From Eledone cirrhosa (Eukaryota): a DNA stretch of 64,000 nucleotides. Numbering within the stretch: position 1 is the stretch's first letter; every line of letters begins with the position of its first letter. The DNA lies in NCBI GenBank assembly GCA_964016885.1, contig OZ024743.1:341558001-341622000 (forward strand). The letters run 5' to 3'. Positions 57,326-61,100 of this stretch are shown in pieces. Under the pieces are notes generated by a model. It was given only the letters and a program-made list of their open reading frames with translations. It searched no databases and had not been told where the DNA came from. The position numbers and the translations under genes are program-made.

Positions 57326-57538
57326 CTTTTACATATTTATATATATATAGTGAGAGAGAAAGTTTATATATATATATATATATATATATATATATATATA
57401 TATATATATATATATATATATAGACATAGAATATTCGAAAATATTCTGTATGTTTATAATAAACATTTTGAAGACCTAATCGCTATAGAATAGAATACGT
57501 CACGTATTACAATTAGATTCTCGATAAAAGCAAGGGAA

Positions 57539-57581
57539 GTAACCTACGCGTTTCATTCTTATTAGAAATCTTCAGGATCAC
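57539..57581 (-). ncRNA. Minimal type I hammerhead ribozyme
   Basis: gtgatc-CTGAAGA-t ttct aata agaa t-GAAA-CGCG-TA-ggttac. Helix I is extended by a perfect 16-bp stem (57517-57532 with 57590-57605). Confidence 0.85.
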
Positions 57582-57848
57582 ATATCCAGTGCTTTTATCG
57601 AGAATGACACAGCTAGAGACTTATAGAATACTTAGCTGTGTACAGGAACTGGTTTGAAAGAGCGGTTGCCGGTCCGGCAGAAATTAGAAATTGGAATAAA
57701 TGCTCTGAAATAGCGATATATATGTGAAGATAGACATAGAATATTCGAAAATATTCTGTATGTTTATAATAAACATTTTGAAGACCTAATCGCTATAGAA
57801 TAGAATACGTCACGTATTACAATTAGATTCTCGATAAAAGCAAGGGAA

Positions 57849-57891
57849 GTAACCTACGCGTTTCATTCTTATTAGAAATCTTCAGGATCAC
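57849..57891 (-). ncRNA. Minimal hammerhead (tandem copy, +310 nt)
   Basis: Identical core and stems to 57539-57581. Confidence 0.85.
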
Positions 57892-58138
57892 ATATCCAGT
57901 GCTTTTATCGATAATGACACAGCTAGAGACTTATAGAATACTTAGCTGTGTACAGGAACTGGTTTGAAAGAGCGAATATTCTATGTCTATCTTCACATAT
58001 ATATCGCTATTTCAGAGCATTTATTCCAATTTCTAATTTCTGCCGGACCGGCAACCGCTCTTTCAAACCAGTTCCTGTACACAGCTAAGTATTCTATAAG
58101 TCTCTAGCTGTGTCATTCTCGATAAAAGCACTGGATAT

Positions 58139-58181
58139 GTGATCCTGAAGATTTCTAATAAGAATGAAACGCGTAGGTTAC
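58139..58181 (+). ncRNA. Minimal hammerhead (inverted copy)
   Basis: gtgatcCTGAAGAtttctaataagaatGAAACGCGTAggttac. Confidence 0.85.
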
Positions 58182-61100
58182 TTCCCTTGCTTTTATCGAG
58201 AATCTAATTGTAATACGTGACGTATTCTATTCTATAGCGATTAGGTCTTCAAAATGTTTATTATAAACATACAGAATATTTTCGAATATTCTATGTCTAT
58301 CTTCACATATATATCGCTATTTCAGAGCATTTATTCCAATTTCTAATATATATATATATATATATATATATATATATATATATATATATATATATATATA
58401 TATATATATATATATATATATATATATATATATGTGTGTGTGTGTGTGTGTAATATAATATACAAATATTTCCTGATGCATACTATATCTTGTGAATTTT
58501 TTGTTTACAGAGCAATGTAGTAAATCCACGGCTTCGGATTAAAACAGACAGCTATTTGCATATACCCGGATTCCATTATTTCATGTTATCAAAATAGCGT
58601 TCGTTGTGTTACAAAACTCTTTCACAATATGTCTATTGTATAGTAAATTCTTGTTCCATTTATCCTAATCTCGTGATGATCGAGACGGAGAAAGTTGATT
58701 AGCGATTTGGAAAGTTTCAGCTTTGAACAAATTATCTAATTAAAATTTCAGCATTGACAATTTGCCTTTCTGTCTTGTATACAGTTGTGTGTTTAAACAG
58801 ACACACACACAGTCACACTCACACACATAAATATAAGCACACACATAAACACCAACACACACACGCACACACACACAGACACACACACACACACACACAC
58901 ACACACACACACACACACACACACACACACACACACACACACACACACACACACACACACACACACACACACATATATATATATATATATATATATATAT
59001 ATATATACATAAACTAATATACATAGTCTTCAATTATTATAGCACAGTGAAATATTCAATCAAGTTATCAGAATTTAATATATAATTTTTATCTACGTTT
59101 ATTACTTGTTTATTCTTCTTTATGAACATATGTTGGATATTACAATATATTCATATAAACATACACACACACATATATATATATATATATATATATATAT
59201 ATATATACATACATACACAATATAATATATATATGTATATATATATGTATATATATATATATATATATTATATAATATATATATATATTTATATATACAT
59301 ATATATATATATATACATATAATATATATATATATATATATGTGTGTGTGTGTGTGTGTGTCTGTGTCTGTGTGTGTGTGTCTGTATGTCTCTGTCCGTC
59401 TGTCTGTGTGTGTGTAACGCAAGAAGATTTATTACAACTCTGTTTTCGTATTTCTTTTATATGTATTTAAATGTTGTTGGTCCTAAGCCTGAAATGGTTT
59501 GTTTTTTTATTATTATTGAAAATGGTTTATTATCTTGTTCGTTCTCCAGTCTATTGCTTGTGTGAGCTGAATACATATACCTATTAATGATTTTAGTTTC
59601 ACTAAACGCACACGACAGAGATGAGTAAATGTAGTCTCTGTAAAACATTATAGTTCTTTATTGGCAGTTGGCTTATATTTTCGTATCTAGAAGAAAATGA
59701 AATGTAATTTTGATATTGATTGTATTCGAACTCAAAACAGCAAAGCACAGTCAATTGATCTAGTTTTACCACTTTGCTCTCCTCTACGTTTTTAAGTAAA
59801 TGTATTTTAAGGACATTTTGAGACACTCCAATCGACTACAAAATTAGGATATACGTTGATTTTGTTTAATTCCATATCACCCTCTTACTGCGGAACTATG
59901 TTGATAAAATAAAGCACCAGTAATACGCTGCAGTAATTGCTTGTCCCAAAAGTAAAAACAATTATTTGCATAACATGCTCTAATATATAATTCTTTAAGA
60001 GAATGCAATTTGAATTGAGGAGGGTTTCACTCATCTCTCTCTCTCTCTCTCTCTCTCTCTCTCTCTCTCTCTCTCTATATATATATATATATATATATAT
60101 ATATATATATATATATATATATATATATATATATATATATATATATATATATATATATATATATATATAAGCTTTAGCACCCCAGGTAGAGGCAAAATAC
60201 TGTACTCATACTTACTATTCAGTTTATTGATATAGAATGATAAAAATAAAGATTAATCTCATGGTATTAGAACTGGAGAATTTAAAACAACGTCTGTGAT
60301 TTATACTATCTCATATGCTATCACATATAGTAGTGGTAGGTCAGTTATGGAAACACTCTACCTATCAAAGTCACTCTTTGATTTTCATGCTGTTTATAGA
60401 TATTCTACTACAACTATGTATATAGACATGAATTAACGGCATTGTTTTACGTCTCGTTCCTCCTTTTATATGTAAAATCTTGCGCCAAATGGAAAAAATA
60501 CAAATACACATATAAACCGCAACAAATAATTACATTTTATCTATTACGATTGGAATAAGGGAGATAGTACGAATATATTTGATCGATTGAAATTGATGTT
60601 ATGATGGTGATGAATTTTCAATATAGATTTTAATTTAAAACGAAAGAAAACAATGCAATTCAATAGATAATTTGTTTTCGAGAACAAAATGCCAGTGAGA
60701 AGGAGAAAGAGAGGAGCCGTGCTTTAGAGACAACTTTAGTTATTTATTCGTTTATCAAATAATATGTTTCAGGAATTGGACATTGGCTTTTATGAGATTT
60801 AATTCGTTACATCAACCACAATGTGTTGTCTAGTTTCTCTACATATACACACAGAAATGTACACATTTGAATACAATTATACACATGCAAATATATACAC
60901 ATACACATGTATATACACGCACATTAGAGGATAGAGGAATATGCGCACCCATCTATATACAATCACGTATCTATACATATATTTTGGTATACATACACAC
61001 ATACATACAAAAGACTGACACACACAAAAATGAATATACGTACGTACATATATATAGATATAGACATGTTTATCACGGGTTCAATCGGGGGTAAGATACT

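Follow-up and report, generated by a model that had tools for sequence, protein, structure and literature searches.

The window analysed here is a 64,000-nt stretch of the Eledone cirrhosa genome (assembly GCA_964016885.1, contig OZ024743.1, positions 341,558,001 to 341,622,000), and it carries between two (TA)n tracts a non-coding 310-nt repeat with a hammerhead ribozyme motif. The repeat is organised in two arms, in which we count unit positions from the predicted ribozyme cut. The left arm (57420-57974, minus strand) is a direct repeat of period 310 and 1.8 units with a single internal mismatch (57602 versus 57912); its 3' end is a short site, A (~position 125), and its 5' end lies at position 191. 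The right, inverted arm (57973-58347, plus strand) comprises 1.2 units with 100% identity to the monomer and runs from a 5' end at position 108 to a 3' end at a long site, B (position 172). The arms meet 5' to 5' at 57973-57974 with a 2-nt microhomology, and the (TA)n target tracts lie at 57365-57422 on the left and 58346-58433 on the right (no strand is assigned to the junction or the tracts). These coordinates, together with a scan for open reading frames (ORFs), bore out the description in an earlier note on this DNA of an ORF-less 310-bp unit in near-identical tandem and inverted copies inside (TA)n; the longest ATG-initiated ORF of the circularised unit has 30 codons. The note had also predicted the exact monomer of a minus-strand transcript, and the predicted monomer (310 nt, 34.5% GC) is indeed exactly 57545-57854 on the minus strand, delimited by two GUA cleavage sites. 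Both secondary structures it had named were located. The 16-bp inverted repeat (57517-57605, minus strand; arms 57517-57532 and 57590-57605) forms a helix past an internal loop that extends helix I of the hammerhead, and the hairpin of 8 bp with a 4-nt loop (57428-57447, minus strand; further copies at 57738-57757 and 58273-58292) stands directly upstream of site A. Folding of the monomer, which the note had suggested as a check, yielded a branched structure more stable than all 100 of 100 shuffles (z = -4.1). Lying 44 nt upstream of the hammerhead core, a TATA-like motif (57620-57628, minus strand; also 57930-57938 and 58092-58100) may be an internal promoter in each unit. The sequence between sites A and B (positions 140-172) forms a tail that is terminal only at the right end (58315-58347, plus strand) and contains a 13-nt motif (58316-58328, plus strand) common to sister families of the repeat.

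Three copies of the hammerhead with an intact core, as the note had claimed for every copy, were present in the window. Copy 1 spans 57539-57581 (minus strand) with a predicted cut between 57545 and 57544; copies 2 and 3 span 57849-57891 (minus strand, predicted cut between 57855 and 57854) and, in the inverted arm, 58139-58181 (plus strand, predicted cut between 58175 and 58176). Each copy consists of a 6-bp helix I (GUGAUC/GGUUAC), the core CUGAAGA/GAAA with a 4-bp helix II that has a U-U mismatch at its base, GUA at the cut, and a 2-bp helix III formed from the palindrome ACGCGU, whose duplex energy is -7.5 kcal/mol. Rfam gave no match at gathering score in this region and Hammerhead_HH9 scored below threshold at all three copies (15.5 bits, E = 1.2, versus a gathering score of 52); the ribozyme call therefore depends on core nucleotides and helices. 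No hammerhead core was found in a core scan of the opposite strand of the unit. Under the definitions of PMC4209133, a hammerhead with a 6-bp helix I, a 4-bp helix II and a 2-bp helix III whose loop is palindromic counts as a canonical metazoan type I hammerhead, which would need a second copy for cleavage. The predicted ribozyme is of this canonical type and not 'minimal' as in the earlier note, since minimal hammerheads (min-HHRs) are those without helix III or loop 3, both of which exist here.

The repeat belongs to an abundant family in this 3.0 Gb genome. The genome-wide search with the monomer that the note had called for returned 209 matches from 40 of the 312 scored candidates, the best at ~99%. 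The exact hammerhead pattern occurred 964 times and the CTGATGA-type pattern 14,246 times, with 0 matches for the reversed-pattern control in either case, and all 100 listed matches of the latter type belonged to the 310-nt family; the total is at least 15,210 hammerhead copies, or ~4.7 Mb. Extrapolation from the listed places gives roughly one to three thousand insertions. The 77 that we examined comprise 35 loci from the best BLAST matches, a set biased to long arrays, and 42 drawn from the two pattern lists by order along the chromosomes. The exact matches were skewed between strands (328 forward, 636 reverse), which would fit one very long single-strand array or a few of them. Near-identical units were also present in six public runs from four studies, with no RNA run among those listed as carrying the unit. 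Three runs that each gave a single contig differed from the window by 6-7 changes, all inside the ribozyme and with the helices still paired, and variants matching these changes occur in this genome as subfamilies, whose changes within the hammerhead preserve helix pairing. The family is young, in keeping with the recent activity that the note had read from the near-identity of the copies. By sequence, the repeat qualifies as a metazoan non-LTR retrozyme, a known class defined in PMC7229834 by a tandem unit of 150-450 bp with less than 50% GC and no ORF, a type I hammerhead in each unit with at least two in a row (here with the sub-threshold Rfam match), and a dispersed multi-copy family without long terminal repeat (LTR) organisation. 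The at least 15,210 copies lie on many contigs and LTR organisation was absent from the 77 loci, where no dedicated search for a primer-binding site or polypurine tract was made. The earlier identification as a retrozyme is supported on all these counts.

Sister families (~320 nt; L095, L123, L128 and 30 further loci) share positions ~59-225 with the unit at roughly 75% identity and have a different hammerhead, in some with a compensated U3-A8 core pair replacing C3-G8. Such a U3-A8 pair is functional in hammerhead cores. Ends are retained in them at ~120-139 and 162-178 nt past the cut, as are the TATA-like motif and the 13-nt motif of the tail, and their 8-bp hairpin before site A is maintained by compensatory swaps of A-U to U-A and A-U to G-C. 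From this conservation we infer that the region of positions ~59-225 recruits the reverse transcriptase (RT).

The insertions themselves followed a nearly invariant plan. The two-armed architecture was found at 61 of the 77 loci, with both 3' ends pointing outward into AT tracts, and at 59 of them one A end was joined 5' to 5' with one B end. Site A lay at an apparent position of 125-147 after the cut, mostly 139, and site B at 160-174, mostly 165. No locus had two A ends, a single complex locus had two B ends and one locus combined A with an atypical end, a pairing with P ~2e-18 under independent choice of ends. The rule held for all 33 two-armed loci in the chromosome-order set of 42, and the window copy (A end at 125, B end at 172, junction of 2 nt) is a typical insertion. 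The inversion and the (TA)n surroundings that had been noticed at one locus are a family-wide rule, and at almost every locus the arm 3' ends lie in tracts of (AT)n or degenerate AT; the architecture is not the assembly artefact the note had considered, since 59 separate loci share it. A AUAUAUAU tract at positions 132-139, inside site A, matches the target, and the match of site A to (AT)n covers 8-9 nt. At most A ends C131 was replaced by the T of the target, which is what annealing of the cut (AT)n primer at site A would produce. The 5'-to-5' junctions (n = 59) showed overlaps of 1-37 nt in 46 cases (overlaps of 1-2 nt may reflect alignment chance), were blunt in 6 and contained 3-24 extra bases in 7. 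Arm lengths ranged from 0.2 to more than 20 units, and the longest arm measured 7,240 bp (~23 units). Other hammerhead families of the same genome also had short and long ends at distances of their own, for example 21/89, 55/143 and ~50/150.

This anatomy is the one seen in Penelope-like elements (PLEs). PLE insertions with an inverted 5'-truncated copy, a 30-40-bp tail that is often one-sided and (TA)n targets are described in PMC8557442, and PMC11167929 reports that a PLE protein, a predicted dimer, cuts and extends both strands and that two nearby internal RNA start sites of the RT define the tail. The inverted copy together with a 30-40-bp tail at one end was present at 59 of the 77 loci, and the two-armed A/B footprint, with its two RT starts, is the PLE signature. 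The mobilisation by PLEs proposed in the earlier note is supported by this footprint, and we consider it very probable that the retrozyme is moved in trans by PLE machinery. What is new is the near-invariant insertion footprint tying a retrozyme to PLE enzymes; the retrozyme class itself is known.

The sequences of the arms allowed us to examine the template that was copied. Both arms of an insertion were of the same haplotype, with agreement in 671 of 675 diagnostic-site comparisons where ~130 disagreements would be expected if the arms were drawn independently; two of the four disagreements were gap-placement artefacts, and mixed locus-by-site cases numbered 9 of 992. Private variants were fixed through both arms (18/18 units in L108; 11/11 and 10/10 in L118), which points to a bottleneck of one unit. 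The arms crossed the cleavage site 417 times, and 4 of the 138 arm 5' ends lay within 4 nt of it (3.6 expected). These crossings and the lack of a pile-up of 5' ends at the cut indicate that the template was continuous there, either ligated or uncut. As a linear control we used mini-insertions of a Hydra-type PLE of the same genome (12 fetched, chosen for close spacing from 100 listed pairs, one unscorable on both arms), and all 11 stopped a few nt upstream of the hammerhead, at the inferred 5' end of the mRNA. About 90% of the arm 5' ends of the 310-nt family were scattered, unlike those of this control. The lengths of the two arms correlated (rho 0.43, p 0.013, n = 33; rho 0.30, p 0.019, n = 59). 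Divergence was not higher in long arrays than in short ones (rho -0.18, p 0.20), and internal variants were entirely lacking from several arrays of 7-15 units. On these sequence patterns, the usual template was probably a ligated circular monomer, copied by rolling circle from primers at both cut DNA ends.

Other candidate signs of circular or ligated RNA were rejected. The change G1A in three units had suggested ligation errors, but variants at position 1 occurred in 3 of 416 units, all in one array, and the extra base of the 311-nt units, considered as a ligation scar, sits inside helix I away from the cut. Variant patterns in L035, L036 and L037 that might have recorded dimer or trimer circles were not strictly periodic. 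A closed 340-nt contig obtained from three of four public runs, whose run type is not on record, provides no evidence for a circle because tandem DNA yields the same contig.

The cycle we propose would begin with read-through transcription, for which the TATA-like motif of each unit is a possible start. Two neighbouring hammerheads would pair through their ACGCGU palindromes, and cleavage after GUA would release the 310-nt monomer; by analogy with PMC7229834 an RtcB-type ligation would close the monomer into a circle. One cut DNA end would then anneal to the AUAUAUAU tract of site A (132-139) and the other would prime 30-40 nt further 3', at site B; here the end positions are observed and the enzyme is presumed. 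Both reverse transcriptases would travel round one shared template, over 0.2 to more than 20 units, and the two copies are joined 5' to 5', mostly via short microhomology, as seen at the junctions. We assign a probability of about 65% to this whole account, namely that a non-coding hammerhead repeat forms a predicted circle that is copied by borrowed PLE RT and endonuclease from both ends of an (AT)n cut. To a stricter version we give even odds: a PLE dimer would cut (AT)n, both subunits would copy one closed 310-nt RNA from two fixed starts 30-40 nt apart, and the subunits would chase each other round the circle to make two multi-unit arms in one event.

A number of observations weigh against copying from a circle by PLE enzymes. 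Only a single retrozyme arm was present at 16 of the 77 loci, and several single-armed loci were joined 5' to 5' to other PLE-type sequences. Thirteen of the 138 arm 5' ends fell in one 8-nt window at ~250-257 (permutation p = 0.016), an excess that was not significant for a 17-nt window (p 0.15). These positions coincide with the start of an arm of the 16-bp helix and lie near the start expected from the TATA-like motif; the excess could reflect transcription start on linear templates, although folding back along the 16-bp helix would account for it as well. In 18 long arrays there were 71 variants, 15 of which were common to several units; this indicates recombination within arrays after insertion that could inflate both their length and their homogeneity. 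The junction showed no ligation scar (positions 308-310 and 3 were without sporadic variants), and the sporadic mutation rate was no lower at hammerhead core positions than elsewhere (0.25% versus 0.19%). Informative chimeric insertions were an inconsistent guide, combining short with long ends in two of three cases (L035 and L123) and not in L041. No autonomous PLE sharing the A/B region was found when the unit and three sister units were compared by blastn with 20 Hydra-type loci, other PLE families not having been screened genome-wide; the search gave only a 28-nt hammerhead match to the Hydra-type PLE, with 25 of 28 nt identical. In published work, hammerhead cleavage was dispensable for insertion of an anole PLE in vitro (PMC11167929), and eight of nine Xenopus retrozyme dimers did not cleave (bioRxiv 10.64898/2026.07.22.740005). 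Much of this would be accommodated if PLE two-site priming took place on an uncleaved linear multimeric transcript, the hammerhead being weak or incidental and no circle being needed, with array length and homogeneity derived from the copying of long parents and later unequal exchange. Unprocessed RNA was the dominant substrate of the anole PLE in vitro (PMC11167929), the excess of 5' ends near the start expected from the TATA-like motif, the variants common to several units and the uncleaved Xenopus dimers all fit such a template, and the concordance of the arms is expected under it too. Linear copying would, however, require parents with up to ~23 uncut ribozymes in series, given the longest arm of 7,240 bp, and it does not readily account for private variants fixed in every unit of both arms or for the near absence of mixed arrays. 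The lack of added divergence in long arrays and the scatter of 5' ends also speak against it, and we regard it as the main rival, though an unlikely explanation.

Two other explanations were weighed. The unit could be the pseudo-LTR of an autonomous PLE, as the earlier note had allowed, and the arrays its 5'-truncated by-products, in agreement with the PLE-type architecture of the insertions (PMC8557442). Yet units continued into units at every one of the 77 loci examined (out of an estimated one to three thousand): none ran into a same-sense ORF, no ORF with RT and GIY-YIG domains lay between repeats, and arms of up to 23 units were pure monomer. The hammerhead of the intact Hydra-type PLE has a nearly identical core and helix II, but those 28 nt are all that is shared and the ends of that PLE lie at 21 and 89 nt after the cut. 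Nor did a PLE ORF follow the unit at 30 sister-family loci, and the PLE fragment neighbouring the array in the window (~55880-57340) is without a unit at its other end. We consider a pseudo-LTR origin very improbable. Still less credible is a satellite spread by DNA-level events such as fold-back replication or extrachromosomal circles, or an artefact of assembly in (TA)n. Assembly is difficult where inverted repeats adjoin microsatellites, and some recombination of units is evident, but against this reading stand the fixed complementary 3' ends and scattered 5' junctions, always 5' to 5', at 59 loci, the ribozyme changes that preserve structure, and the near-identical units in six public runs from four studies.

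The PLEs of this genome include candidate partners. An abundant Hydra-type PLE (L149:3366-5639, minus strand) has an intact 758-codon ORF and a long microsatellite-like 3' region. The ORF contains the Hydra-clade motifs CxCX5C, DKT, CxxC and CxH and no CCHH, and exists in many copies with 97-100% identity over the endonuclease part. The hammerhead pattern of this PLE had 14,478 matches genome-wide, CCAAT and TATA motifs precede the hammerhead, and there are many mini-insertions from the RNA 5' end alone; its tail of 68 nt is unrelated to that of the 310-nt unit. Other candidate PLEs are labelled 'Neptune-like'. Pfam gave no match for the 758-codon ORF, so clade labels rest on motifs (PMC8557442). 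Decayed copies of the Hydra-type PLE lie in the window at 61090-61138 and 13920-13968. The fragment that adjoins the 310-nt array (~55880-57340, minus strand), with (TA)n between, is a 5'-truncated degenerate PLE with a weak RVT_1 RT piece and a GIY-YIG-like piece.

Further elements of related appearance were noted. A two-armed element at ~52100-54380 has short and long ends and a U3-A8 hammerhead variant with the palindrome ACCGGU (52169-52209, minus strand; 54207-54247, plus strand), and this U3-A8/ACCGGU motif recurs at L158 behind fragments of RT and GIY-YIG. Another hammerhead family, whose ends lie ~50 and ~150 nt after the cut, is represented by two-armed elements at ~54480-55060, 32293-33835 and 960-1009. 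A retrozyme-like family that shares the hammerhead design of the 310-nt unit, with a U-U base, a 4-nt loop and a palindromic ACUAGU helix III was found at 7481-8025 and at L097:1146-1570 (~424-nt period). The short near-perfect palindrome between (TA)n at 55665-55780, also present at L047, L104, L128 and L159, is probably a truncated two-armed insertion of another family. Another tandem family, in the flanks of L047 and L122, has a hammerhead-like core that is very short, a single base separating CTGATGA from GAAA; at L047 this family is joined head-to-head to the retrozyme. Elsewhere in the window, a tRNA-like Rfam match with a truncated T arm (51462-51518, minus strand) probably represents a tRNA-derived short interspersed element, and 62944-63943 holds broken helicase-like frames that may resemble Helitron Pif1.

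The family can be set beside known systems. It is not an autonomous PLE, a min-HHR or a viroid. Viroids and viroid-like replicons are defined by ribozymes in both polarities and no DNA stage. The 'viroid-like' label of the earlier note did not hold up: the ribozyme core occurs in one polarity with no antisense core, the fold is branched, there are thousands of DNA copies, and nothing points to RNA-to-RNA replication. Hammerhead viroids (Avsunviroidae) resemble the unit in size, lack of an ORF, hammerhead and circle (predicted for the unit), whereas the unit is genome-encoded, with a one-polarity ribozyme, a DNA insertion stage and no sign of RNA-to-RNA replication or infectivity. The retrozymes of coral, mussel and axolotl (PMC7229834) share with it a low-GC tandem unit of 150-450 bp without an ORF, one type I hammerhead per unit, a short palindromic helix III favouring dimers and PLEs in the same genome, and axolotl HHR_Amex2 also has the U-U mismatch at the base of helix II. 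Those retrozymes are described as head-to-tail tandems, and their cleavage and circles were demonstrated; the 310-nt family is two-armed in (AT)n, with PLE tail asymmetry at 59 of 61 two-armed loci, and its cleavage and circles are predicted from sequence. Mobilisation by PLEs is only proposed in PMC7229834, as 'a strong candidate'. Li, Clavereau and Pollet (bioRxiv 10.64898/2026.07.22.740005) regard non-LTR retrozymes as non-autonomous PLE derivatives on the evidence of co-occurrence and pseudo-LTR phylogeny, mostly in vertebrates, where our evidence is the insertion footprint; they credit tandem growth to local amplification or unequal crossover, whereas the haplotypes of the 310-nt family suggest that arrays arise largely during insertion, from a single unit. 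Endonuclease-containing (EN+) PLEs (Hydra, Neptune and Naiad, PMC8557442; Anolis PAc, PMC11167929) have the same inverted 5'-truncated copy, 30-40-bp tail, (TA)n target and two internal RT start sites downstream of the hammerhead; the 310-nt family differs in encoding no RT or endonuclease and in having multi-unit sequence in both arms. PAc starts without homology to the cut DNA (PMC11167929), whereas site A matches (AT)n over 8-9 nt. Non-autonomous Chlamys PLEs such as MRC1 are a further point of comparison (PMC8557442): most Chlamys lack a hammerhead and have a 3' end that resembles that of the autonomous partner, while the 310-nt family has a ribozyme and the search for a partner gave none that matches it in the 3' region. 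We found no description of this family or of two-armed, tail-bearing retrozymes in the literature covered, which did not include Repbase, Dfam, most subscription journals or the supplements of PMC7229834 and the 2026 preprint.

The enzyme that mobilises animal retrozymes is left open in PMC7229834, the 2026 preprint calls for a mechanism, and PMC8557442 leaves open how PLEs build tandem and inverted insertions with a one-sided tail. In the 310-nt family, both priming sites, both arms and the junction can be traced in thousands of insertions that are young, near-identical and protein-free, and intact candidate partner ORFs exist in the same genome. With its two mapped starts, the 310-nt substrate is a ready in vitro system for studying PLE trans-mobilisation and circular templates. 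If both subunits of a PLE dimer do copy one closed RNA, the insertions would be direct genomic evidence that retrozyme circles serve as the template of transposition and that PLE enzymes are the mobilisers, and positions 60-175 would constitute a ~115-nt enzyme-recruiting RNA module conserved across sister families with different ribozymes.

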